The notes under the pieces are model-generated. The model had not been told where the DNA came from and ran no database searches. It saw only the letters and a program-made list of their open reading frames with translations. From the NCBI GenBank assembly GCA_963718575.1, contig OY970358.1:194172-258171 (forward strand): 64,000 nt of DNA, written 5' to 3'. The stretch comes from an uncultured bacterium (GTDB taxonomy: Bacteria; Patescibacteriota; Minisyncoccia; UBA6257; 2-01-FULL-56-20). The translations under genes were made by a program, and so were the position numbers. The stretch's first letter is position 1; every line of letters begins with the position of its first letter. This document shows positions 3,120-55,025 of this stretch, piece by piece.

Positions 3120-3969
3120 CTATTTATTGTTGCGGTTACGCAAGCTGACGCGCCGCTTGACGATAAATTTGCTCGACTTGTTCTTCTTGTTGCGCGTCTT
3201 GTGACCGCCGGTGACCTTGCCCCACATGGTCTTCGGTTTTCGGGTGCCGCGCGGCTGTGCGCCTTCACCGCCTCCGTACGGATGATCAACCGGGTTCATA
3301 GCACTGCCGCGGACCGTCGGACGGATGCCCATCCAGCGCGAACGGCCGGCCTTGCCAAAGTTTACGAGCGACCATTCCGAGTTCGAAACCTGACCGAGCG
3401 ATGCAAGGCACGTCCAGAGGACGCGGCGGACCTCGCCCGAGTTGAGCTTGAGGTCGGTGTAGTTATCGGCATTGGCCAAGACTTCTGCATACGCACCGGC
3501 GGAGCGGGCGAGCTGTCCGCCGCGTCCCGGTGCCATTTCAATATTATAAACCTGCTGACCAACCGGAATGTTCTTGAGTTGCATGCGGTTTGCCGCCCTT
3601 GATCGGCGCCGCCTCCGCAGTCACGATCTCATCCCCTACCTTCAACTTTTCCGGCGCCAAAATGTATGTCTTCGTTCCGTCGGTGTATTTTACGAGCGCG
3701 ATGAACGCGGTGCGATACGGATCGTACTCGATCGTCTCGACGATCGCTTTGGAATTCAAACGGTCCTGTTTGAAGTCGATCACGCGATAGAGCTTCTTGT
3801 TGCCGCCGCCCTGATGGCGTACAGTGATGCGGCCTGCGGAGTTGCGGCCGGAATGCGTCTTCAAGCGAACCACGAGCGGCTTATAAGGACGCGCGCCCTT
3901 GGTCAGGGTGCTGTAGTCCGAAGACGTCATGTTGCGCCGCGAAGCGCTTGTTGGCTTGAAGGATTTCAT
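3120..3969 (-). CDS. rplB: 50S ribosomal protein L2, interrupted by an apparent 1-nt insertion near 3589
   Basis: N-terminal 141 aa (ORF 3544..3969: ...[22 protein letters not shown]...) and C-terminal 154 aa (ORF 3120..3584: [16 protein letters not shown]...HPYGGGEG...) are both L2. Removing one A in AAACCGC restores [15 protein letters not shown]. Confidence 0.9.
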
Positions 3970-4912: not shown

Positions 4913-5476
4913 TTATTTGGAAGATGAAATTTCGATCAATCCGCCGCGGCCGCCCGGAACGGCGCCCTTAAGGAAAAGCAAATTGTTTTCTTTATCGATT
5001 GCGGCAACGACGAGGTTCTTGATCGTGACGCGGTCAACACCCATGTGTCCTGCCATGCGGCGGCCCGGGACGACGCGCTGGAAAGCGGTCGAGCCGATGG
5101 AGCCCGGCGCGCGGTGACGATTCTTCTGACCGTGGGTTTTAGGACCGCCGCGGAAGTTGTAGCGCTTGACGACGCCCTGGAAACCGCGACCCTTCGTGAT
5201 GCCGCTCACGCGCACCTTGTCGCCTTCTACAAACGAATCAACGCCGACCAAATCATCAATTTTTAACGTAGAAATATCCACCTTCTGATTGGGGCGGTTC
5301 TTGAACTCGCGCTTCTTCTTGCCCAACGTCAATTGGACGGCCTCATAGCCGTCGCGCTCTGCGGTGCGCACGATGGAAACCTTGTTCGGTTCCGCCTGGA
5401 CGACCGTAACCGGAAAGACTTTTCCGTCCTTCCAAATCTGCGTCATTTTAAGTTTTTTGCCTAAGATATATGACAT
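4913..5476 (-). CDS. rplC: 50S ribosomal protein L3
   Basis: MSYILGKKLKMTQIWKDGKVFPVTVV...GITKGRGFQGVVKRYNFRGGPKTHGQKNRHRAPGSIG is L3. The 24-codon upstream extension in the ORF track is likely non-coding. Start chosen at the conserved MxxILGKK. Confidence 0.9.
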   Translation of the reverse strand: MSYILGKKLKMTQIWKDGKVFPVTVVQAEPNKVSIVRTAERDGYEAVQLTLGKKKREFKNRPNQKVDISTLKIDDLVGVDSFVEGDKVRVSGITKGRGFQGVVKRYNFRGGPKTHGQKNRHRAPGSIGSTAFQRVVPGRRMAGHMGVDRVTIKNLVVAAIDKENNLLFLKGAVPGGRGGLIEISSSK

Positions 5477-5488
5477 TTTCTTGATCGT

Positions 5489-5564
5489 TTCCGAGTGAAG
5501 TACTATCTCCCTCACTACCGCGTAGGAACGCTCAAACGTTCGGGACACAGTACTTCACTCGGAA
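5489..5564 (-). promoter_or_regulatory. 16-bp perfect inverted repeat (ttccgagtgaagtact / agtacttcactcggaa, 44-nt loop) immediately upstream of rplC; candidate leader hairpin/attenuator
   Basis: Seen directly in sequence. Position is just 5' of the rplC start codon, at the junction between the inserted block and the rest of the S10 cluster. Confidence 0.4.
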
Positions 5565-5583
5565 AATCCAGTAATAAATTATT

Positions 5584-5611
5584 AAACTCCGGTTCTGACA
5601 CCGGAGTTTTT
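5584..5611. terminator. GC hairpin (ctccggt-tctgaca-ccggag) followed by TTTTT; intrinsic-terminator-like
   Basis: Stem-loop plus T-run in sequence. Lies between the NUDIX gene and rplC. Confidence 0.4.
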
Positions 5612-5804
5612 AGCACAATCAACCGACCTACCCCGCTTTTAGACGGGATCCAGAGAAAACGGCGACCGTTTTTCTGCGCCTGGCCCGCGAACACGTTTCG
5701 CGTTCATAGCCGAGGCATAAGGGGTAAATATTTGCATAAAAACTACCGAGCAAACCTTGATGACGATTATAGCAAAGCGGGCGGTAAAGTCAAATGGGGT
5801 CTCT

Positions 5805-5922
5805 GCCTCCTGGCTTCGCATACCCTTTTGAGGGACGGGTTCCGCGCTGCTGCGCGGCCCCTTACGCTCGCCGCCTTCGCGGCTCCGCGATACCCTCAAA
5901 AGGGTATGCGAAGCCAGGAGGC
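5805..5922. repeat. Structured repeat element, copy A: 30-bp perfect inverted-repeat arms around a 58-nt core
   Basis: Arms gcctcctggcttcgcatacccttttgaggg and its exact reverse complement. The core shares ~80% identity with the element at 51345..51459 (gttccg...ctgctg...cggcc...cctta.gctc...gccttcgcg..tccg) although the arm sequences differ. Confidence 0.6.
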
Positions 5923-5959
5923 CAAAATCACCGTTTGGCGTATGCGCCCGCTATGAAAA

Positions 5960-6409
5960 TTATTTTAGATGCTTTTCGAAATAAGCTCTATATCTTTCAA
6001 AAGTATAAGCAAAACCGCCATGAAGTGGCTGTGGTAATTTGTCTATTTTATACCATCCTAGCTCCTCGATTTTTTCCGGTTCTCCGTTCTTAACCTCCGC
6101 AGGGTCAACAAGTATGAAAAATGGCACGGCGATCCAATGGGTTTTGACGCCGTCTTGATCGCGAAAAATATCATGCGCTGGCAATTGTTCCTGAACAACT
6201 CCCTTACAGCCGTACTCCTCCATAACTTCTTTTAAAACGTTTTCCTCCAATGAAATTTCAAATTCCATTTTCCCCGAACCGGTATCCCATCGGCCATGTT
6301 CATCTCTGCACTTTATTGTTCGTTTGTGCATCAGAAGATTCCCCTTTCCGTCATGACAATAAAACGGGGTGGTAACTCCAATAAAATCAAAGCCGATTTT
6401 CATATGCAT
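5960..6409 (-). CDS. NUDIX hydrolase
   Basis: Nudix box GSGKMEFEISLEENVLKEVMEEYGCKG (Gx5Ex7REVxEExG). 149 aa. Local GC is clearly lower than in the ribosomal genes. Confidence 0.7.
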   Translation of the reverse strand: MHMKIGFDFIGVTTPFYCHDGKGNLLMHKRTIKCRDEHGRWDTGSGKMEFEISLEENVLKEVMEEYGCKGVVQEQLPAHDIFRDQDGVKTHWIAVPFFILVDPAEVKNGEPEKIEELGWYKIDKLPQPLHGGFAYTFERYRAYFEKHLK

Positions 6410-6462
6410 AGTTTATGATGGGAATTATGTACAGGCTAATAGAATTTGTGCCAATCTTGCAG

Positions 6463-7095
6463 TTAAAACAGATATCGCCCCGAAGCCCAGCCTCGCTTTC
6501 CGGGCGGCGCAATGGCTTTTACTGCGTTGCCATCTATATATAACTCATCCTGGACAATTTCGCCTTTTCGAATAGCTTCTTCCCATGCCTGAGTTGGTTC
6601 TTTACCCCACGGAAGCCATGGCGTCAGGTCGTCCATAATAATAACGGTGTCAGGGCGAGCAAGCGCTTTCATATTATCAATATCTGCTTTTACGATTTCG
6701 TACTCGTGACCGCCATCAATAAAGATGAGGTCGAATTTTTGATCGGGATTCTGCGCTGAAAATTCTGGCACTGTTTTTGTCGAATCGCCAAGAATGAGTT
6801 TGTGCCTTCCGGGAAATTTGCGATTAATAATTTGCTTTGCGCCGGAAACGAATGAATGCGTTCCGATATCGAATGAAACTACCGCTATATCCTTCCGCGC
6901 TTTAAGAAATGCATACGAAGAAAATCCAAGGTGAAAACCAATTTCTGCGATGCTTTTTACATTCGGCCGCTTTGCTGTTTTATAAAGATATTGTAATTCC
7001 TGCGGAGAAGAAGCTCCTTCATTGATTTTATAACCACGCAATCGAAGCTCCCCATAGATCAGTCCTTGCGCGATATTAAATCGAAACGAGTTCAT
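6463..7095 (-). CDS. Class I SAM-dependent methyltransferase (Methyltransf_24/TylF-CmcI-like)
   Basis: Glycine-rich SAM motif IAEIGFHLGFSS and DLIFIDGGHEYE, typical of the O-methyltransferase/CmcI family. AT-richer than flanking sequence. Confidence 0.6.
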   Translation of the reverse strand: MNSFRFNIAQGLIYGELRLRGYKINEGASSPQELQYLYKTAKRPNVKSIAEIGFHLGFSSYAFLKARKDIAVVSFDIGTHSFVSGAKQIINRKFPGRHKLILGDSTKTVPEFSAQNPDQKFDLIFIDGGHEYEIVKADIDNMKALARPDTVIIMDDLTPWLPWGKEPTQAWEEAIRKGEIVQDELYIDGNAVKAIAPPGKRGWASGRYLF

Positions 7096-8851: not shown

Positions 8852-9232
8852 CTAGACGCGCTCCTCTAGAGTATTCACGCGTTCGTTCATCCCCTCAATT
8901 AATATTTTAAGCGAGCCGTATCCTTCCAACGTAAAATCAAATTTTGAATCTAATTTTTCGAGCAAGAGGCCGGTCTTTTTATTTGATTCTTCGAAACGAT
9001 CTATCCTCTTTTCAAAAAGATTCATCCGTTCATCTAACCTCTCTGCCACTGAATCCATTTTGCCGGCAATAAGAAGCATTCTTCCATCCACTCCGTTCTT
9101 TAAATGGTCAAACTTATCATCAAACGCAATAACAAGCCCGTCCATCTTCTTATCGATGGCCCCCACCTTGCCCTCAAGGGTTTCAACCCTCTTATCCAGA
9201 TTTTTTAAAAGAATATTTTCCTTTTCAAGCAT
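8852..9232 (-). CDS. Small coiled-coil protein, paralog family member 1
   Basis: 126-aa heptad-rich ORF. Promoter/upstream motif is shared with 19197..19481 and 55026..55388. Confidence 0.5.
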   Translation of the reverse strand: MLEKENILLKNLDKRVETLEGKVGAIDKKMDGLVIAFDDKFDHLKNGVDGRMLLIAGKMDSVAERLDERMNLFEKRIDRFEESNKKTGLLLEKLDSKFDFTLEGYGSLKILIEGMNERVNTLEERV

Positions 9233-9238
9233 GCACTT

Positions 9239-9266
9239 ATTTTAGAAGCGCAAGAGAATAAGTCAA
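9239..9266 (-). promoter_or_regulatory. Sigma70-like promoter TTGACT-N16-TAAAAT placing the TSS at or near the ATG (leaderless)
   Basis: RC of 9233..9266 reads TTGACTtattctcttgcgcttcTAAAATaagtgcATG. Nearly identical arrangement upstream of 19197..19481. Confidence 0.5.
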
Positions 9267-9296
9267 AAACTTTTTAAGAAATTTTTAATGTTTAGT

Positions 9297-10304: not shown

Positions 10305-10323
10305 TTCTTTATTATAATCTCGT

Positions 10324-10365
10324 CTAAAACAAAAAGCCCCGCTTTCGCGGGGCTTTTTGTTTTAG
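10324..10365. terminator. Perfect palindromic intrinsic terminator (ctaaaacaaaaagccccgc-tt-tcgcggggctttttgttttag), bidirectional
   Basis: Stem agccccgc/gcggggct flanked by A-run and T-run. The T-run overlaps the rpsJ stop codon. Confidence 0.7.
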
Positions 10366-10685
10366 ACCATCTTGATCTCAATATCAACGCCGGCGGGAAG
10401 GTTCAAGTTCGAAAGGGATTCAATGATCTTCTGACTGGGGTTTAATATCTCTACAAGGCGCTTATGAATGCGGAGCTCGAACTGTTCGCGGGCATCCTTA
10501 TGGACGAAGGTCGAACGGTTGACAGTGTAGTGCTTCACTTCCGTGGGAAGCGGGATAGGACCCGTCACCTTGGCATCGTTCCGCTCGGCGGCCTCGATGA
10601 TCTGGCGTGCCGAGTTGTCGATCAGTTTATGATCGTACGACTTGATGCGAAGGCGCAACTTTTGTGGAGTATCTGTCTTTGCCAT
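10362..10685 (-). CDS. rpsJ: 30S ribosomal protein S10
   Basis: [48 protein letters not shown]...RIHKRLVEI is S10. Start chosen at the conserved MAK, not the upstream ORF-track ATG. Confidence 0.9.
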
Positions 10686-11010: not shown

Positions 11011-11337
11011 GCGCGAGGTATCGAACGACATCTAAATATTGGTTACATAAAAAAAGAGCGTCGCACTGATAGAGCCGCATTTACTCGTCTTCGTCTTCCT
11101 CTGCCTCTGGCGTGACTTTGACAATCTTATCGTCCTTCGCGTCAACGATCAGAAAAAATATATGCGTGGCTCCGGTGATGAGTCCGCCAGTTTTTCCCTC
11201 TGGATCAAAAAACTCTCCTCTCCTTGGGACTCCTGGAGGCGTCAGCGTCGTGAAAAAAATGTAATAACATAAGCAAATAAAAACCACCCTTGAAGGGAAT
11301 CGCGGAGCCGCGAAGGCATCTTCATCCCTCGAGCAGT

Positions 11338-11416
11338 AACAAAAACACCCCTTCCTTTTTTGACGGTCACGTTCCTACGTGGCATTTCCGTCAAAAAAGG
11401 AAGGGGTGTTTTTGTT
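11338..11416. repeat. Conserved long hairpin element, copy 1, immediately 3' of tuf
   Basis: Near-perfect 79-nt palindrome aacaaaaacaccccttccttttttgacgg-TCACGTTCCTACGTGGCATTTCC-gtcaaaaaaggaaggggtgtttttgtt. The central 27 nt are identical to copy 2 at 16026..16105, while the outer stems covary. Confidence 0.6.
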
Positions 11417-11421
11417 ACTGC

Positions 11422-12623
11422 TTACTTGATGATCTTCGTCACGACGCCGGCGCCGACCGTCTTGCCGCCCTCGCGGATGGCGAAACGCATCTTGTCTTCC
11501 ATAGCAACCGGGGTGATGAGCTTGACCGTGATCTTGACGGTGTCGCCCGGCATGACCATTTCCATTCCTTCAGGAAGGGTGACCTCACCGGTCACGTCGG
11601 TCGTGCGGATGTAGAACTGCGGCTTATACCCCTTGAAGAACGGAGAGTGACGGCCGCCCTCTTCCTTCGAGAGCACGTAGATCTCACCTTCGAACTCCGC
11701 GTGCGGGGTGACGGTGCCCGGCTTCGCGAGCACCTGTCCGCGCTCCACGTCCTCTTTCTTGAGACCGCGGAGGAGCAAACCGGCGTTGTCGCCTGCCTGA
11801 CCATCATCCAAGCTCTTGTTGAACATTTCGATGCCGGTGACGACGGTCTTCTGGGTCGGCTTCAAACCGACGACCTCGACTTCCTCGTTCACTTTGACGC
11901 GACCGCGCTCGATGCGGCCGGTGACGACCGTGCCGCGGCCTTCGATCGAGAAGATGTCCTCGATAGGCATAAGGAACGGCTTGTCGAGTTCGCGGACCGG
12001 ATCCGGGAAGTAATCGTCCATCGCCTTGATCAAGATCAAGGATCGGCTTCGCATCTGCGGAATCAGCATCGGTCGCGTTCAACGCCTTCAATGCCGAACC
12101 GCGGATCACCGGGGCATGCTCGCCATCGTAGCCGTTCTTGGTGAGCAACTCGCGCACCTCGGACTCTACGAGATCGATCAATTCCGGATCATCTACCATA
12201 TCGCACTTATTAAGGAACACGATGATGTTCGGCACACCGACCTGGTGAGCGAGCAAGATGTGTTCGCGGGTCTGCGGCATCGGGCCGTCAGTCGCGGCAA
12301 CGACGAGCACTGCGCCGTCCATCTGGGCGGCGCCCGTGATCATGTTCTTAATGTAGTCAGCGTGTCCCGGAGCATCAACGTGCGCATAGTGGCGCTTCTC
12401 CGAAGAATATTCGGAGTGATGCAAAGCGATCGTGATGCCACGAGCCTTCTCTTCCGGAGCATTGTCGATCTGATCGACTTTCTCCTCTTTCTTTGCCCAA
12501 CCCTTCAAAAACAAAACGTGCGTGATCGCCGCGGTCGAGCGTCGTCTTGCCATGATCGACGTGGCCAATCGTACCTACGTTGAGGTGCGGCTTGGACCGG
12601 TCGAACTTTTCTTTTTCTGCCAT
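11422..12623 (-). CDS. tuf: Elongation factor Tu, interrupted by two apparent 1-nt indels (~12536 and ~12032)
   Basis: Three overlapping frames together read [29 protein letters not shown] | [36 protein letters not shown]...ADAKPILDL | [25 protein letters not shown]...[14 protein letters not shown]. This gives a full-length EF-Tu. Confidence 0.9.
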
Positions 12624-12761
12624 AGTGTTTAAAAAATATTAATGTTTGTTTTACTGCGCGCGCAATCCCCTTTCGAAGAAAAACAGCCTCGAGAGCTGTG
12701 AAAATCTATAGCCAATCGACCTAAGTGACTTTCTCTTTTTTCCTCAGGGATTTACCAAGCA

Positions 12762-12790
12762 ATTGTATGTGGATTGCGCGAAATTGTCAA
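12762..12790 (-). promoter_or_regulatory. tuf promoter TTGACA-N17-TACAAT, ~130-nt leader
   Basis: RC of 12762..12790 reads TTGACAatttcgcgcaatccacaTACAAT. Same consensus as the rpsL promoter. Confidence 0.5.
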
Positions 12791-12814
12791 ATACGGCGGG
12801 GAAAAGTTGTGGAT

Positions 12815-12857
12815 ACAATAAAAAGCGCGAGAAAAAGATGTAATCTTCTTCTCGCGC
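12815..12857 (-). terminator. Intrinsic terminator (gcgcgagaa...ttctcgcgc hairpin + T-run on minus strand)
   Basis: Lies just 3' of the 12871..13383 gene. Confidence 0.5.
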
Positions 12858-12870
12858 CACACCCCCAGCA

Positions 12871-13383
12871 CTAGTTTTCCAAAATCTCCGGCATTGATCG
12901 CCCTATCATATCCAAGAGGTTTTTGACCTCTTCACTTTCAATGCCGCGCATAAAAACCTCCTCCTGGATGAACATCGGGGCATTCCGGGCGAGCGCGAGC
13001 GAAATCGCATCACCGGCGAACGCAACGACAGAAAAGTCCTTTTCTCCCTGCCGTAGGCATATCACCGGTATGGAAACTTCTGCCCGCTTTCCATCCTCAT
13101 CGGTCGCCGTCCCATTCGCGATCACGATCCGCTCGAGAGATGCCCCAAGCCCATCGAGTATGTTGCCCATGACATTCGGAAACGCCTGATCGTAGAATTC
13201 CAACCCCGCTGCCATGCTCATAACGCATTTCGTGTCAAACGGAGTCATGATGATAGGAAAGTGTACCATTACTTCCCCTACCCTGAGCACCACCACCGAC
13301 CTGCCGTCGCTCAAATTCACTCCCGCATCCTTCGTGACCACAAATGGTATCAATCCCATGCAATCCTCCCATTCTTCGACCAC
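12871..13383 (-). CDS. Bifunctional nuclease (BFN/DUF151) domain protein
   Basis: ...VVVLRVGEVMVHFPIIMTPFDTKCVMSMAAGLEF...PVICLRQGEKDFSVVAFAGDAISLALARNAPMFIQEEV matches the DUF151 pattern (PIxIG.FEA..I......DARPSDAIALALR..PI.V.E.V). Confidence 0.5.
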   Translation of the reverse strand: MVEEWEDCMGLIPFVVTKDAGVNLSDGRSVVVLRVGEVMVHFPIIMTPFDTKCVMSMAAGLEFYDQAFPNVMGNILDGLGASLERIVIANGTATDEDGKRAEVSIPVICLRQGEKDFSVVAFAGDAISLALARNAPMFIQEEVFMRGIESEEVKNLLDMIGRSMPEILEN

Positions 13384-13416
13384 TGCCTAAAGCCTATCAA
13401 GATGCCGCTCGCGATG

Positions 13417-13884
13417 TCAACGGTTCATCGCCCACACCCGATAGTTCAAATATGACGCGAATGTGACCCAGGCCGCGTATGGCACTAACAACCACGCGGC
13501 GAGCGGCGAGAGCGGCGCTATAAATTGGATGAGTAGGATGATCGTAAGGTCGAGGAATAGGCATACCCAGATGGCCGGCCCGGGCCGGTGCAAATAGAAG
13601 AATACGTAGCTCCAGAAAACGTTCACTGCCGCGTTCAGTATAAAAAGCGTGGCGACGAGCGCCGGCACCTGCACACCGTCCGGCAGGTTCCACACCATGA
13701 GCGCCGCGATTGCCGCAAGGATATAGAGCACCGTCCACACCGCGCCGATCACGCCTCCCGGCGGCGTCCACGACGGCATGCGCAACGTCTCGTACCACGT
13801 CGCGACCGATCGGGCCGTAAGCCGGCCACCGGCGAATGCGACGATCACCGCAATGAGCGGAATGAGGATGTAAGAGAGCTGCAT
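13417..13884 (-). CDS. tspO: TspO/MBR family tryptophan-rich sensory protein
   Basis: WYETLRMPSWTPPGGVIGAVWTVLY...5 TM helices. Start chosen at MQLSYILIPLI. Confidence 0.8.
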   Translation of the reverse strand: MQLSYILIPLIAVIVAFAGGRLTARSVATWYETLRMPSWTPPGGVIGAVWTVLYILAAIAALMVWNLPDGVQVPALVATLFILNAAVNVFWSYVFFYLHRPGPAIWVCLFLDLTIILLIQFIAPLSPLAAWLLVPYAAWVTFASYLNYRVWAMNR

Positions 13885-13891
13885 GGATTCA

Positions 13892-14134
13892 TTATAGCGC
13901 ACCGTAGGTCTGTTCACTCCGCCGCTCAATCAATAAGATCGAGACAGCACTGCCTTTTTTGCGAAATATAATACGTACACCTCCCTTTCGGATACGGAAA
14001 ATATCATCACGGCCTTGCAACTTCTTTACATCTAATCCTCCCAACTTATTCAATCTCAGCCTTCCAAAAACATCCTTCACCCAAAGTCGCTCCTTGGCGC
14101 TCAGCTTCTTGAGCGCTTTTTCGATCGCATCCAT
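13892..14134 (-). CDS. Type II toxin, RelE/ParE superfamily
   Basis: 80 aa, ...GRDDIFRIRKGGVRIIFRKKGSAVSILLIERRSE. Immediately downstream of a Phd/YefM-like antitoxin ORF. Confidence 0.5.
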   Translation of the reverse strand: MDAIEKALKKLSAKERLWVKDVFGRLRLNKLGGLDVKKLQGRDDIFRIRKGGVRIIFRKKGSAVSILLIERRSEQTYGAL

Positions 14135-14143
14135 GGGGCAGCG

Positions 14144-14371
14144 CTATAACCGCGAAAGCAGATCAGCGATCGCAACACCGCCCTTTTTGATCTTAGTGAA
14201 ATCGATGACCGGCTCCCACAATCCGGAAGAATCGTCATCAAGCGGGGATATTTTGAACACCGGCTTTGATTTTCTGACCACCACAAAAGAATCCCCTTTT
14301 TCCACCCGGGAAATATAGGTTTCTATATTCTCGCGCAATTCCCTCAGCCCCACGATCGTCTTTTTCTTCAT
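14144..14371 (-). CDS. Type II antitoxin, Phd/YefM family
   Basis: MKKKTIVGLRELRENIETYISRVEKGDSFVVVRKSKPVFKISPL. Start chosen at the internal ATG with the Phd-like N-terminus. 7-nt gap to the toxin gene. Confidence 0.5.
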   Translation of the reverse strand: MKKKTIVGLRELRENIETYISRVEKGDSFVVVRKSKPVFKISPLDDDSSGLWEPVIDFTKIKKGGVAIADLLSRL

Positions 14372-14515
14372 ATCCTCAAGTTTATCTTGAGATAAACTTG
14401 GCGTCAAATAATATTCCGTTGCCACACAATAGCACATCCGGATTAAAAATCTATTAAATATCTCCTGAATTTACTTTTTCCGGCTGCCACGCTATATTTC
14501 CTTTCGGGAGGTGCT

Positions 14516-14848
14516 ATGAAAAGCACTCAGATAAAATTCAAGGCAATACTCAAAGAGTATTGCGACGGGTCGCCGCACATTGTCGGAATGCGGGCAGGGA
14601 TCTACACAAGACACGTCAATGTGTCGATCGACGCACGCTTCCCCCGAAAAACCCGGGAGATCGACGAACTGGACAAGGAGACGCTGCGGATGAAGAGAGA
14701 ACTCGAAGAGTCCTTTCCCCACCGGAAAGTCGATGTCCGCATCGGACCAAGCGAAACAATGCCAAAGCCGGATGAGATTAAGCCCTTTCAGAGCGAAAAG
14801 ATCGTTTACATCACTGTGCGGCCGTACAAGATAAAATCCAAGTGTTAG
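14516..14848 (+). CDS. Hypothetical protein (110 aa)
   Basis: ORF with GGGAGG RBS 5 nt upstream of the ATG. Terminator follows. No recognisable motif. Confidence 0.4.
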   Translation: MKSTQIKFKAILKEYCDGSPHIVGMRAGIYTRHVNVSIDARFPRKTREIDELDKETLRMKRELEESFPHRKVDVRIGPSETMPKPDEIKPFQSEKIVYITVRPYKIKSKC

Positions 14849-14863
14849 CGCCGGCAACGGCAT

Positions 14864-14894
14864 AAATCGCAACCTCACGGGGTTGCGATTTTTC
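14864..14894. terminator. Bidirectional intrinsic terminator (aaatcgcaacc-tcac-ggggttgcgattttt)
   Basis: Lies between the convergent genes 14516..14848 (+) and 14913..15503 (-). Confidence 0.65.
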
Positions 14895-14912
14895 TATGCA
14901 ATAAAAATATCT

Positions 14913-15503
14913 TCAGAGTAATCGCAGAGCCCGCAGTTCGCGCCGCGCCGCGCGCCAATCGGGAATCACGCTTGCGACGAGCGCCCAAAAGCGCGGCGAA
15001 TGGTTGAGCTCGCGCAGATGCGCCAGCTCGTGGACAATCACGTAGTCCTGTAAGTGCGGCGGCAGGAATACTATCTTGTAATTGAAGTTCAGATTCCCTT
15101 TCCGCGAACAGCTTCCCCAGCATGTCTTTTGATCGCGGATCGCAACGCGGGCGAACGAAACCCCGGGAACACCCGGTCCGCCAAGCAGCGGCGCGAACAC
15201 TGCAAGCCGCGCAAGCACGAATGCCCGCGCCACCTCGCGATGCAAAAGATATTCGCGGCGGCCGTACCGCGCCACAGGATCCGGCGGCGGAAGCGAACGG
15301 ATCCGCGCGAGCGCGGCCATCACCCATCGCGCGTGGCGCAGAACAAATCCTTCCCCAAAGCGCTCCGCCGTCCGCATGGGCGTCGTGAGCACCACCGCCC
15401 CGTCGCGGCCTACCGCAAGCCGCATCCGCCGCGCCCGCGCGGAGCGGCGATGCGTGTACGAAATCGTCGATGAACCAACAGTCAATTCTTTTTGCATATG
15501 CAT
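14913..15503 (-). CDS. DUF45/YgjP-like zinc metallopeptidase (WLM/M48-type HExxH)
   Basis: ...WGSCSRKGNLNFNYKIVFLPPHLQDYVIVHELAHLRELNHSPRFWALV... carries the diagnostic DUF45 motifs. Very GC-rich. The alternative-frame ORF 14875..15726 is a shadow. Confidence 0.8.
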   Translation of the reverse strand: MHMQKELTVGSSTISYTHRRSARARRMRLAVGRDGAVVLTTPMRTAERFGEGFVLRHARWVMAALARIRSLPPPDPVARYGRREYLLHREVARAFVLARLAVFAPLLGGPGVPGVSFARVAIRDQKTCWGSCSRKGNLNFNYKIVFLPPHLQDYVIVHELAHLRELNHSPRFWALVASVIPDWRAARRELRALRLL

Positions 15504-15516
15504 CTATTCTACCCCA

Positions 15517-15549
15517 ATAAAAAAGTCCGGTGGATATGCTCCACCGGAC
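15517..15549 (-). terminator. Hairpin gtccggtgga-tatgc-tccaccggac + T-run (minus strand), upstream of the DUF45 gene
   Basis: Seen in sequence. Could insulate the insert from fusA read-through. Confidence 0.4.
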
Positions 15550-16025
15550 ACCCGATCCGTTTATCACCCGAGCCTGCCGCTGTCGAGTGAGGGGTTTCGT
15601 TTTTTTAGATTCGCATCCCCGACCGCCCTGTATCCCCGCCACCTCACGCATGCCCGCCGCCGACGAGAAAGCGTCCGGGAATGAGGGATGACTCCACCAT
15701 ATCCGCCGGTACGGCAGTCGCTTCACTCGCGCCGTAGAAGATCACCCTCGCCCGCATTCCTTCCTTTTCTGAAGTTCCGAGAGCATACCCAGAAGGGGTC
15801 GTCAAAATTATTGTCCGGCAATTTCCCGGAGGGCAAAAGCATTTCCTTAGCGTATATAGGAGAAAAAGAAAATCCCCTCCATCATGAATGAAAGGGATTT
15901 TCTATCCGCCCGCGTCTACATATAACGTAGACAGGGACTACCGCCCCACGGGCATGTTTTTATAGTATGCCTCTACGCATCCACCGTCAAATAACTTTTA
16001 ATGATTTTTTAACCATCATGTTTCT

Positions 16026-16103
16026 AAAAACAAAACACCCCTCCTCTTTTTAACGGTCACGTTCCTACGTGGCATTTCCGTTAAAAAGAGGAGGGGTGTT
16101 TTG

Positions 16104-16105
<2 letters not shown>
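16026..16105. repeat. Conserved long hairpin element, copy 2, immediately 3' of fusA (overlaps the stop codon)
   Basis: aaaaacaaaacacccctcctctttttaacgg-TCACGTTCCTACGTGGCATTTCC-gttaaaaagaggaggggtgttttgtt. The central 27 nt are identical to copy 1, with compensatory changes in the stem. Confidence 0.6.
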
Positions 16106-18212
<2,107 letters not shown>

Positions 18213-19196: not shown

Positions 19197-19481
19197 CTAT
19201 CCCCGCTCCTCCACCACCCGGAGGCGGACGTCGAAATCCTTATTGGCGCCCTGGAGTTTAGAAATGTCTTCATTTGTGCGCACCGCATATGCAGAAAAGT
19301 GTGCATTAATGCCTTCTGTTACTTTGCGAAGATCCGCGATCGCCGCGAGAACTTCATCTTTAAATGACCTTAACTCATCTTTGGTGGCCATTCCGCCCAT
19401 CGTGGTCTTCATCTCTATCATCTCGGCGTGAACCACGTCGAAATCTTTTTGAATTGCGAGTGCTAATTTATCTATTGTCAT
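19197..19481 (-). CDS. Small coiled-coil protein, paralog family member 2
   Basis: 94 aa. ...GGMATKDELRSFKDEV... aligns with ...EGFMATAKDLLSLTERV... of 55026..55388. Shares its promoter with 8852..9232. Confidence 0.5.
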   Translation of the reverse strand: MTIDKLALAIQKDFDVVHAEMIEMKTTMGGMATKDELRSFKDEVLAAIADLRKVTEGINAHFSAYAVRTNEDISKLQGANKDFDVRLRVVEERG

Positions 19482-19487
19482 GCACTA

Positions 19488-19515
19488 ATTTTAGAGCGCG
19501 TGCAGAGAAAGTCAA
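19488..19515 (-). promoter_or_regulatory. Leaderless promoter TTGACT-N16-TAAAAT-N6-ATG, copy of the 9239..9266 promoter
   Basis: RC reads cattaaaaaatcctaaaaaagtttttgactttctctgcacgcgctcTAAAATtagtgcATG. Upstream A-tract motif is conserved with copy 1. Confidence 0.5.
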
Positions 19516-19614
19516 AAACTTTTTTAGGATTTTTTAATGAATTAATTCAATACACAGAATCACCTGCACTTTTCATTTTTCCCAACTCACGCTATAAATA
19601 GATGGTCGCAAATA

Positions 19615-46448: not shown

Positions 46449-46510
46449 AAAGCCCGCTTGTTTTAAGACCGTTGCGTCTTCGCACTAGGTCGCAAAACAA
46501 GCGGGCTTTT
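46449..46510 (-). terminator. Long-stem intrinsic terminator (gcccgcttgtttt...aaaacaagcgggc)
   Basis: Seen in sequence. 3' of the 46515..46856 gene. Confidence 0.6.
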
Positions 46511-46514
46511 ATAT

Positions 46515-46856
46515 TTACTGCTGTGCCGGGATCATCGGACCGCCGGGAGTGCTCGTGGCACCGCCCGTCGTCTCGCCCGACGGCATATAACCGCCGCCGT
46601 ATCCTCCATCACTCTGCATCATCGAATGTTCGTGGTAGTAGGATCCGCCAAACGCGGCGTGGAGCTCATCGCGAAACTCTCCCGCCTTTACGCCCAGCGC
46701 AAAAACGAAAGCGAGGATCACGATGCCCACGATCCACCAGATCAGGCGATGGCCATGCCCGCATCCGCATCCACACCCGCAGGTGCATCCAGCACCGCAC
46801 GCGCACGTCGTTTTGCCCGTCGATACTATCTTCTGTCCGTTCTTCATTTCGTCCAT
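46515..46856 (-). CDS. Cys/Gly-rich membrane protein (possible metal-binding), hypothetical
   Basis: CACGAGCTCGCGCGCGHGH cluster. One TM helix. Gly/Tyr-rich tail. Confidence 0.4.
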   Translation of the reverse strand: MDEMKNGQKIVSTGKTTCACGAGCTCGCGCGCGHGHRLIWWIVGIVILAFVFALGVKAGEFRDELHAAFGGSYYHEHSMMQSDGGYGGGYMPSGETTGGATSTPGGPMIPAQQ

Positions 46857-50818: not shown

Positions 50819-51343
50819 ATGATCATAAACAGCGAGGACGAGAAATTTTTTGAGGATCTTGCCGGCGCGAAGACGGAAGCCGACGGCGAGTACGACGTGG
50901 AACTCGTGAAGGCGTCGAGCGGCGCAGTTGCTTCGCGCCCGGCATCCGCCGCGCCGAAGATGATCCGCACCGCAAAAGAAGACAAAGAGGATCTCTGGGC
51001 CGACGGCGAACCGGAAGGCCAGCTGACGGTGGACGTCTATCAGACGGCGAACGACATCGTCGTGGAATCCGCGATTGCGGGCGTGGCGCCGGACGACATC
51101 GATGTGAACGTCACCACCGACTCGATCTCCATCCGCGGCTCGCGCAAGCGCGAGAAGACCGTGCGCGACGATGATTACCTCTATCAGGAATGCTACTGGG
51201 GCAAATTCGGCCGCTCCATCATATTGCCGCAGGAAGTTGACCCGGAAGGCGCGGTGGTCAAGTTCAAGAACGGGATTCTGACGGTGACCCTGCCAAAAGC
51301 GAATAAGAAGAAGATCCACAAGTTGAAGATTCGGGTGGACTAA
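50819..51343 (+). CDS. Hsp20/alpha-crystallin family small heat-shock protein
   Basis: ...GQLTVDVYQTANDIVVESAIAGVAPDDIDVNVT...GILTVTLPK alpha-crystallin domain. Confidence 0.8.
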   Translation: MIINSEDEKFFEDLAGAKTEADGEYDVELVKASSGAVASRPASAAPKMIRTAKEDKEDLWADGEPEGQLTVDVYQTANDIVVESAIAGVAPDDIDVNVTTDSISIRGSRKREKTVRDDDYLYQECYWGKFGRSIILPQEVDPEGAVVKFKNGILTVTLPKANKKKIHKLKIRVD

Positions 51344-51344
51344 G

Positions 51345-51459
51345 GGCCTAAGTGACACACCTTTCGAAAGGACGGCGTTCCGATCTGCTGACCGGCCGCC
51401 TTAGCTCTCAGCGCCTTCGCGCTTCCGACACACCTTCCAAAAGGTGTGTCACTTAGGCC
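51345..51459. repeat. Structured repeat element, copy B (2 nt after the hsp20 stop)
   Basis: 20-27-bp inverted arms ggcctaagtgacacaccttt... around a core ~80% identical to the core of 5805..5922. Confidence 0.6.
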
Positions 51460-53774: not shown

Positions 53775-54698
53775 TTGTCCGCATGTCAATGGAGGAGTAT
53801 AATGAACGCAATGGATGAGACTTTTGCGCTAAACGCCACGAATGAGCTGACGGAACACGTCACGTACCATAAGCTCGCATTGATGGAAAAGAACACCGCG
53901 AACCGTGATGCGCTTGAGCGGCTTTCGGTGCAGGAGAAAACACATTATGAGTTCTGGCAATCGCTCCTGCCGGAGGCAAAGGCCAAAGCGATCCGCGCGC
54001 GATGGTATACCGTCTGGGGCGTCTCATTTTTGCGCGTGGCGTTCGGCGTGACGTTCATCACAAAGTTCCTGGAAACGCACGAGACCGGTGCCGTGGGGAA
54101 ATATCAAAGCATGCTCGGTTCGATTCCCGAATCACATAAAGCTCGTTTCCTTCAAATAATAGAAGACGAAAAATCGCATGAACGGGCATTGATCGCCCAG
54201 CTCAAAGAGAAGCGCGTGAGCTACATCGGCTTCGTCGTGCTCGGCCTCGCGGACGCGATCGTCGAGATCACGGGCGTCCACGCCGGATTCCTCGGCGTCA
54301 CCGGCTCCACGCTCATCGCCGGCATCGCCGGCGTCATCGTGGGATTCTCCGCAGCGATCTCCATGGGTTCGGCGGGGTATCTGCAGGCAAAGCAGGACCC
54401 GGAAAAGTCCGCGCTCCTTTCGGGATTCATCACGTGGGCATCGTACTTCTGCTCCGTCATCCTGCTCGCACTCCCCTACTTTTTGATCCGCGTGATGATC
54501 CCCGCGTTCATCGTCTCCGCATCCGTCGGCATCCTGCTCGTCGCCGCGTTCACCTTCTACGGCGCCGTCGTCTTCGACCGCACGTTCTGGCGCGAATTTG
54601 CGGAGACCGTAACGCTGATGCTCGCCACCGCGCTTGCCACATTCCTGCTCGGCATCGTCGTCGGCGGCATCTTCCATATCAATACCGGAAGTTTTTAG
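53775..54698 (+). CDS. VIT1/CCC1-family iron/manganese transporter with N-terminal ferritin-like domain
   Basis: N-terminal E..H-containing four-helix region (EKTHYEFWQ, DEKSHER). C-terminal 5 TM helices. Confidence 0.65.
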   Translation: MSACQWRSIMNAMDETFALNATNELTEHVTYHKLALMEKNTANRDALERLSVQEKTHYEFWQSLLPEAKAKAIRARWYTVWGVSFLRVAFGVTFITKFLETHETGAVGKYQSMLGSIPESHKARFLQIIEDEKSHERALIAQLKEKRVSYIGFVVLGLADAIVEITGVHAGFLGVTGSTLIAGIAGVIVGFSAAISMGSAGYLQAKQDPEKSALLSGFITWASYFCSVILLALPYFLIRVMIPAFIVSASVGILLVAAFTFYGAVVFDRTFWREFAETVTLMLATALATFLLGIVVGGIFHINTGSF

Positions 54699-54711
54699 AT
54701 TATTTCTCCGG

Positions 54712-54788
54712 GATTTAAAAAGGGCGCCTGCTTTTGTGACCGTTGTTTCTTAACACTAAGTCTCAAAAGCAGATGCCCTTTTTAAATC
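54712..54788. terminator. 25-bp near-perfect inverted repeat (gatttaaaaagggcgcctgcttttg / caaaagcagatgccctttttaaatc), bidirectional terminator-like
   Basis: Seen in sequence downstream of the VIT gene. Confidence 0.5.
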
Positions 54789-55025
54789 CCGTCAGATTTC
54801 TGGCGCAACAGCCAGGTGGGTGGACTCAACTGCGGTCCACGGACGGCAGAGATTTGTCCTCCCCTTTAAAATTGTTTGATCCGAAATCTGCGCGGGATCT
54901 GACTCTATTATACCACCGCTCCGGCAAAAGATATCAATGTGCATAGCGCTTCACTACCACAAAGCCCATTAAATCTATATTAAAAGAGTTTTGACTTCCC
55001 CATTGTAAGGATTATCCTTATTGGC

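Follow-up and report, generated by a model that had tools for sequence, protein, structure and literature searches.

A Lineage-specific Family of Dispersed Palindromic 3'-End Elements with a Conserved Asymmetric Tip in Patescibacteria

In behavior, the closest described parallels to the elements reported here are the REP/BIME sequences of enterobacteria and pseudomonads, which are likewise short, dispersed, multi-copy palindromes that lie just 3' of genes and are co-transcribed with them. Their 3' hairpins stabilize the upstream mRNA or terminate transcription, the role proposed below for the present family, and both kinds of element show repeat-like gain, loss, and inversion between close relatives. 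A REP unit is ~35 nt long, has a conserved stem and a 5' GTAG head, and is linked to a RAYT transposase. Intrinsic terminators provide a second point of reference; the usual one has a stem of ~5-14 bp and a loop of 3-8 nt. To our knowledge, the ways in which the mainly uncultured Patescibacteria end, stabilize, and sort their transcripts are almost wholly uncharted.

The window, by which we mean the whole 64,000-nt stretch of DNA analyzed, part of an 881-kb source contig, carries two long hairpins that belong to a lineage-specific family of dispersed palindromic 3'-end elements with a median length of 86 nt. We put the odds at about even that these are REP-like, lineage-specific bidirectional terminators or 3'-end hairpins whose tip would act as a sequence-specific recognition module. 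The family is new, being undescribed in Rfam and in the literature searched; its kind is known, namely dispersed extragenic palindromes that serve as 3' hairpins.

Two Palindromes Downstream of tuf and fusA

The first copy (11332..11422) is a perfect 91-nt palindrome directly 3' of tuf, with the minus strand as the mRNA sense; its arms, at 11332-11366 and 11388-11422, are 35 nt each. The second (16029..16105, minus strand) is a perfect 77-nt palindrome directly 3' of fusA, with 28-nt arms at 16029-16056 and 16078-16105. Arm complementarity is 100% in both, and the arms are separated in each case by 21 nt. This spacing holds an invariant tip (11367..11387 in copy 1 and 16057..16077 in copy 2, both on the minus strand) that has the same letters in the two copies and reads TCACGTTCCTACGTGGCATTT on the plus strand. 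The window contains the 14-mer CACGTTCCTACGTG at these two places and no others, against a chance expectation of 0.32 even with two mismatches allowed. The predicted RNA fold of copy 1 reaches -65 kcal/mol (z-score of -14 versus shuffles) and that of copy 2 reaches -51.1 kcal/mol (z-score of -9 versus shuffles). A covariance model scores copy 1 at 101.8 bits on the minus strand versus 57.6 on the plus strand, and copy 2 at 91.6 bits on the minus strand.

A sequence-only reading of this DNA had reported hairpins at both 3' ends, and both are there, the full palindromes being slightly larger than it proposed. The identical apical sequence that it noticed is a 29-nt center, acggTCACGTTCCTACGTGGCATTTccgt, common to both copies without a difference. 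Its description of outer stems that differ yet remain perfectly paired also holds: the copies are 89% identical over 71 nt, and each of four left-arm differences is accompanied by a complementary change in the right arm. The inner palindrome, given as CACGT-TCCTA-ACGTG, is actually CACGT-TCCT-ACGTG, with a loop of 4 nt.

Each element touches the gene upstream of it. The stop codon of the translation gene tuf (EF-Tu; 11422..12623, minus strand) occupies 11422-11424 and overlaps the stem base of copy 1, and the fusA ORF (EF-G, 702 aa; 16104..18212, minus strand) ends at 16104. The fusA product is 100% identical to P0001 (elongation factor G) and has the EF-G Pfam domains. Alignment to the intact tuf genes of loci L101 and L103 shows that the window tuf frame is broken twice, by single-base insertions at 12539 and 12031. 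One of the two insertions lies in a GATC-rich context, and the neighboring fusA is intact. The frame breaks could be long-read assembly errors or the mark of a pseudogene.

Every relative examined has a variable gene island as the spacer between fusA and tuf (window 12624-16028; L102-L110, 12.1-16 kb). In the window, it encodes a bifunctional-nuclease-like domain, TspO, and a Phd-like antitoxin, and in L102 it holds a defense-like set of MrcB_N/NucS_C, a MazG-like protein, and an SLFN-type helicase. A separate 36-nt AT-rich repeat lies at 9255-9290 and 19504-19539, with copies 86% identical; it contains a minus-strand TTGACT-16-TAAAAT promoter-like site whose end is 6 nt before the start codons of 8852-9232 and 19197-19481.

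The position of the two hairpins, 4.7 kb apart as direct repeats flanking tuf and the variable gene island, is what would be expected if they were ordinary terminators that are alike through a recent local duplication involving fusA and tuf. This explanation is scarcely credible, given that the tip recurs unchanged in 85 other sequence contexts, that the window stems differ at the four compensated pairs, and that in L038 and L101 a different stem bears this tip at the tuf 3' site. The occurrence of the tip throughout a family found in both genomes and metagenomes excludes simple local duplication.

Pairing, Tip, and Gene Context across the Family

The exact 20-mer of the tip has 19 matches in species-representative genomes, all of them Patescibacteria metagenome-assembled genomes (MAGs), with 11 in a single MAG. 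The labels of the matching MAGs are Minisyncoccia, Parcubacteria, and, for one bin, 'Saccharibacteria', and Danish soil MAGs are among them. An exact 18-mer matched 82 stretches of JGI metagenome contigs; the same 18-mer gave 0 matches in the viral contigs searched, on which ground a phage origin was rejected. After removal of duplicates, 87 distinct copies remain, all but one within long palindromes. The exception (L063) is a match inside a coding region, without a stem, and was used as a chance control. The window copies recur letter for letter in two metagenome contigs, L050 and L061. The carriers are closely related, with 76-97% DNA identity between orthologous genes, and the family is restricted to a narrow clade of peat-bog Patescibacteria (Minisyncoccia/Paceibacteria-type MAGs). 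Rfam at gathering thresholds finds tRNAs only in the whole window and no family for the hairpins; an E-value search of 11300-11450 returns only matches resembling microRNA precursors, that is, long hairpins, far below threshold. A literature search that included the literal tip sequence found nothing relevant to the hairpin family.

The stems range from 28 to 46 bp across the family, with a median arm of 32 bp and a median total length of 86 nt (82-86 aligned copies). The mRNA-sense consensus of 86 copies is AAAAcAAAA-nn-CCYYYC-n-UUUUU-GACGG-[AAAUGC-CACGU-AGGA-ACGUG-A]-CCGUC-AAAAA-n-GRRRGG-nn-UUUUgUUUU. In an ungapped alignment of 82 copies (A1), pairing in the 31-bp outer stem reaches 95.6%, with both sides changed at 28 of the 31 pairs; for the whole structure, 96.2% of cells are paired and 642 are doubly changed (82 copies). 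None of 500 shuffles reaches the observed pairing, and sliding the partner by 1-3 columns lowers it to 44-57%. The pyrimidine/purine block changes by transitions only (C-G to U-A), and the outer arm positions contain almost no sequence information. Pairing is thus under strong selection or templated correction.

The mismatches also bear on the level at which pairing is maintained. G-U pairs are rare in the stems, and mismatches of the G-T type (26) and the A-C type (20) are about equally frequent, indicating that the palindrome is kept Watson-Crick on both strands. Such balance is a prediction of palindrome maintenance at the DNA level and contains no RNA-strand signal; as a guide to the functional strand, the comparison (26 versus 20) was set aside as uninformative. 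These properties (Watson-Crick pairing on both strands, rare G-U, and mismatches lacking strand asymmetry) would suit a site that acts in DNA, whether a binding site or cruciform for a DNA-binding protein or a tag resembling an uptake signal, with its position at gene ends incidental. The CACGT-N4-ACGTG core has the typical shape of a dimer operator. Neisseria uptake sequences also occur as inverted pairs in terminators and thus offer a parallel, but two copies in 64 kb here and 11 in one MAG are far too low a density for an uptake signal. A cruciform is disfavored by the 21-nt loop, as a loop of this length is unfavorable for extrusion. A DNA-level role is further opposed by the asymmetry of the tip and its orientation relative to transcription, and by covariation in the internal hairpins of a sister family, type B (see below), that is sensible only in a single strand. 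A DNA-level site is therefore quite improbable as the main explanation.

The tip of the elements matched here, type 1, reads GG-AAAUGC-CACGU-AGGA-ACGUG-A-CC in the mRNA sense and is essentially invariant over 21-27 nt. It is predicted to fold into a mini-hairpin of 5 bp that closes an AGGA loop, with bulges of 6 nt on the 5' side and 1 nt on the 3' side. Because copies were gathered by exact tip words of 18-20 nt, the sample is biased toward unchanged tips; positions outside the search word and variants encountered as bystanders lessen this bias without abolishing it. The search word left out three unpaired Ts, and these show no change in 86 of 86 copies, next to stem positions that vary by 3-26%. 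A near-match count over all DNA examined found 85 exact and 5 variant tips within palindromes. One variant, in L006 (CAGGT...ACCTG), is a compensated change of the 5-bp mini-hairpin, and other tip types retain a mini-hairpin with different sequences. Constraint is far stronger on the asymmetric tip than on the stem.

Several specific functions for the tip or the element were considered and dropped. Pairing with rRNA does no better with the real tip than with shuffled ones: against the 16S of L039 and the rRNA downstream of it, the best duplex energies fall inside the shuffled range. No conserved frame follows the AUG in the tip bulge, which speaks against a peptide encoded from there, and a K-turn was rejected because the bulged strand has no G-A pairs. 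A promoter within the element (TTGACG in the inner stem) has no acceptable -10 at 16-18 nt, and none was called by a promoter scan.

The sequence-only reading had tied the element to tuf and fusA, which proved too narrow: the 87 distinct copies follow at least 33 gene families as well as tRNA-Pro genes. The comparison with relatives that it had set beforehand as a test finds the element at gene 3' ends there too, neither absent nor scattered without regard to gene ends. By the gene calls used here, which come from our own codon-usage caller and are approximate, the median distance between the upstream stop codon and the stem base is -1 nt, with most values between -10 and +6 (n = 65). The carrier genes are presumably those for EF-Tu, EF-G, L7/L12, L11, L21, L31, S10, S18, and GroEL, and further ones those for Hsp20, a cold-shock protein (Csp), an RRM protein, YchF, and sigma-70; the EF-G and S10 identities were confirmed by a separate check of their sequences. 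Judged by these identities, the carriers are probably for the most part highly expressed. Elements are also found 3' of tRNA-Pro(CGG) genes; what they mark is therefore where transcription units end, not where translation does.

The tip has a preferred direction with respect to the upstream gene. In 54 cases, the AGGA loop and the upstream gene are read from the same strand; in 10, they are on opposite strands, and a further 11 elements lie between convergent pairs. The preference is thus ~5:1, with ~16% of copies flipped, some of them at orthologous sites with the same stem; these minority copies are genuine and not gene-calling errors. GC skew was tried as a proxy for the replication strand and discarded, as it follows the local coding strand and leaves orientation to transcription and to replication inseparable.

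The stem has the layout of a bidirectional intrinsic terminator, with an A-tract, a pyrimidine-rich GC block, and a U-tract, and in place of the terminator loop it bears a ~45-nt extension that ends in the invariant asymmetric tip. A simple scan for consensus terminators did not call the hairpin elements. Among 381 genes from all loci and the window, there is no Shine-Dalgarno (SD) enrichment upstream of starts, and TATAAT-like words lie 6-12 nt before the ATG, implying one promoter and one terminator per gene. The 16S 3' end (L009 and L039) reads ...GGATCAATTAAAC and is without CCTCC. The clade appears, from these sequence signals, to rely on leaderless, largely monocistronic mRNAs, each needing a terminator. 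Mimicry of the SD or anti-SD by the purine and pyrimidine arms was dropped in view of the missing SD signal and the 16S 3' end without CCUCC.

An alternative that makes use of both stem and tip is an RNase III-type processing stem. Perfect 28-46-bp duplexes are classic RNase III substrates, and the elements could be precursors that release a small hairpin RNA with an invariant tip; the many copies, most of them under strong promoters, would then supply a single trans-acting pool of small RNA or protein sponge. The stems fit this proposal, as do the combination of a variable stem with an invariant apex, which is the pattern of a multi-copy precursor, the restriction of sub-threshold Rfam matches to microRNA precursors, and the presumably high expression of the carrier genes. 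Proteins of the CsrA type bind hairpins with an A(N)GGA motif, which the AGGA loop matches and which would suit a sponge. On the other hand, no complementary target was found in the DNA examined, the tips of types 2 and 3 have AAGA and not GGA, and a precursor needs neither terminator-like A/U tracts nor contact with a stop codon. A processing stem of this type is unlikely on balance.

Turnover at Orthologous Sites and Sister Tip Families

Arms diverge faster than the adjacent coding DNA at orthologous sites. Between tuf orthologues, the coding sequence is 91% identical and the arms match at 18 of 33 positions, whereas the tip is identical; between hsp20 orthologues, the corresponding values are 97% and 17 of 33, again with an identical tip. 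The different stem under the same tip at the tuf 3' site of L038 and L101 was mentioned above. At orthologous sites, close relatives may keep the tip, have it flipped, carry another conserved tip in its place, or show a plain terminator. For example, a plain bidirectional terminator follows rpsJ (S10) in the window (10322..10367, minus strand), with perfect 21-bp arms and a 4-nt loop. It is the 'empty' counterpart of a type 1 element: at the S10 3' end of L007 and L059, the same outer stem holds the ~45-nt type 1 module. Comparison of filled and empty S10 sites shows no target-site duplication. Flipped tips inside the same kind of stem are seen at the rplL site (L018 versus L048) and at the tRNA-Pro site (L006 and L037 versus L057 and L081).

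Nine relatives were sampled through EF-G alone (79-96% identity) and are thus unbiased by the tip sequence. Type 1 was found in none of the nine; after fusA, four have a type B module and five have a plain terminator. Presence and absence of the element, together with swaps of tip, despite coding DNA that is ~90% identical, imply that no given gene depends on it.

Some copies are irregular. Half or chimeric elements with a canonical tip occur at L040:10041, L093:26, and L080:1011, where the arms are mismatched or one arm comes from another locus; either recombination has taken place at the tip that they share, or the tip has broken the assembly there. Downstream of tuf in L101, a type 1 element (3551-3647) is followed ~150 nt on by a type B element (3790-3887), in tandem after one gene.

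Several sister tips sit on comparable palindromes. The window has two type 2 elements on the minus strand. One, at 46441..46517, has the tip ACC-UAG-UGCG-AAGA-CGCA-AC-GGU, scores 44.8 bits under the covariance model, and lies 3' of a 113-aa gene whose ORF (46515-46856, minus strand) ends in the stem base; the orthologous sites of L023 and L074 carry a type 1 tip. The other, at 54709..54791, lies between the convergent genes 53775-54698 (plus strand) and 54792-54944 (minus strand), and alignment shows a type 1 tip at this site in four relatives (L014, L030, L054, and L069). CsrA/Rsm sites present A(N)GGA in a short hairpin loop; here the loop is AGGA in the type 1 tip and AAGA in these sister tips at orthologous sites. 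Type 2 tips (ACC-UAG-UGNN-AAGA-NNCA-AC-GGU) on equally long palindromes are also present in L001 and L075, and their mini-hairpin is compensated between copies (UGUU/AACA versus UGCG/CGCA). Type 3 tips (GCC-GAAUUAUUCUUAUCACGA-GGC), found on long palindromes in L018, L025, L026, L048, L064, L074, L096, and L001, often lie 150-220 nt from a type 1 element near rplL and frequently have no abutting called gene. Tip types run to a fifth, whose CACUG-CGGA-CAGUG is a compensated version of the type 1 mini-hairpin; types 2 and 3 have AAGA, not GGA.

Type B is larger. Its window copies are a long palindrome at 5805..5922 (plus strand), with 30-bp arms and a tip module of ~58 nt that has two internal hairpins, and an element at 51345..51459 (plus strand) directly 3' of the plus-strand ORF 50819-51343. 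In all DNA examined, there are 18 distinct copies, with 12 of 17 internal pairs compensated and no match in Rfam, and type B is a candidate for a new structured RNA. The module spans ~60-75 nt, with conserved joining strands GGGACGG...CCUUAGCUCUC...CUUCG...CUCCGAGAUACCC. Elsewhere it follows fusA in L102-L104 and L110, tuf in L103 and L007, and tRNA genes in L006 and L069. A further long hairpin at 5488..5565 (plus strand) has the interior GCGU-AGGA-ACGC, a compensated version of the type 1 mini-hairpin; it and the type B element at 5805-5922 share a stretch of ~900 nt (5488-5565 and 5566-5960) with few convincing ORFs. A search of 5400-6500 against Rfam found nothing at E <= 0.01.

This turnover gives some weight to a second reading, in which type 1 is a selfish or neutral dispersed repeat: a ~45-nt palindromic module that colonizes the loops of pre-existing terminators and keeps its tip for its propagation machinery and not for use by the host. 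Ectopic gene conversion could be enough for its spread, or a transposase or recombinase specific for hairpins could be at work. Such a module would account for the S10 3' end that is filled in relatives and empty in the window with the same outer stem, for the swapping of tip types at orthologous sites, and for tips flipped within identical stems. The half or chimeric elements in L040 and L093, the coexistence of several tip families in one genome, the arms that are perfect on both strands, and the narrow range, with type 1 in 0 of the 9 EF-G-anchored relatives (79-96% identity), point the same way. However, neither a transposase nor a target-site duplication nor a conserved terminal repeat can be seen; what varies is the arms, which would have the role of MITE terminal repeats; and viral contigs gave 0 matches. 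Moreover, passive spread does not predict a 5:1 orientation bias or enrichment after highly expressed genes, although conversion linked to transcription could mimic both. A selfish or neutral repeat is thus a possible but doubtful account of the family.

Proposed Role and Comparison with Known Systems

The sequence-only reading had judged the elements to be more than two ordinary terminators, and a dispersed family with an invariant tip and compensatory stem changes bears this out. Its proposal of a shared termination or stability module, or of a protein-binding site, is still the best reading, in a form that is not specific to the two translation-factor mRNAs. In the reading that we favor, the hairpin would end transcription and/or shield the 3' end of the mRNA, in genes that are leaderless, largely monocistronic, and for the most part highly expressed. 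A partner with sequence specificity, probably a protein, would read the tip in the RNA. A reader of the tip at the RNA level would explain why the tip is frozen, why the stem is free as long as it is paired, and why the element faces one way relative to the upstream gene. At the DNA level, the family would spread and be reshuffled among terminators, possibly through gene conversion that starts from the identical center, through inversion between the arms, and through template switching, by which the arms would stay perfect. Such behavior would be REP-like, that of repeats that are also functional 3' hairpins.

More tentatively, the tips of the terminator hairpins (type 1, types 2-5, and the ~70-nt, two-hairpin type B) may be conserved RNA modules that replace one another within a single system. 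Dedicated readers could use them as 3'-end tags on tRNAs and on abundant leaderless mRNAs, or they could be self-propagating RNA-dependent elements that home into terminator loops. As 3'-end tags, they would be a bacterial counterpart of the logic of the histone stem-loop and the IRE. If true, either version would amount to an unrecognized layer of 3'-end biology in Patescibacteria.

Independently of that proposal, the 87 copies are a natural mutagenesis experiment in which everything is randomized except pairing and the 21-27-nt tip, pinpointing the nucleotides that a partner must read. The element marks what are probably the most highly expressed genes of organisms that apparently translate leaderless mRNAs, and it presents terminators as potential landing pads for exchangeable structured modules. 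In practical terms, identical tips within perfect inverted repeats are likely break or flip points for metagenome assemblers.

Among known systems, the DUS/USS uptake sequences occur about once per kb, and the window has 2 copies in 64 kb. Integron attC sites are also palindromes at gene 3' ends in which structure and not stem sequence is conserved. They have RYYYAAC and GTTRRRY boxes at the base, essential extrahelical bases, and a variable apex; the pattern here is the reverse, with stem bases that are A/T tracts without boxes and pairing that is essentially perfect, and there is no cassette array or integrase near the hairpins. Correia/NEMIS, ERIC, and YPAL elements are similarly dispersed and co-transcribed, forming long RNA hairpins with orientation-dependent effects on mRNA. 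They differ in having conserved terminal inverted repeats and target-site duplications, as expected of MITEs; here the outer arms are almost without information, and filled and empty sites show no duplication.

The IRE, the histone stem-loop, lambda boxB, and the GGA hairpins of CsrA resemble the present elements in their conserved loop or bulge, their variable paired stem, their occurrence across a set of mRNAs, and their dependence on orientation. Those hairpins are 15-30 nt long, lie outside terminators, and have known partners, whereas the elements described here are embedded in terminators, behave as a mobile repeat, and have a postulated partner. Bidirectional intrinsic terminators share the A-tract, GC-rich stem, and U-tract right after a stop codon or tRNA, and by sequence the hairpin features and the 3'-end location agree with such terminators. 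The size does not: with a median arm of 32 bp, the stems are 3-4 times longer, and a structured ~45-nt extension with a 21-nt tip stands in place of a 3-8-nt loop.

REP/BIME sequences come closest. They differ from the present family in stem and head, since here the stem is free in sequence (28 of 31 pairs vary) and 28-46 bp long, the apex is the conserved part, and GTAG occurs only inside the tip (CACGTAGGAACGTG); no RAYT (Y1 HUH) transposase was seen among the ten ORFs of the 9.3-18.7-kb region around tuf and fusA. Many extragenic copies at gene 3' ends are common to both.
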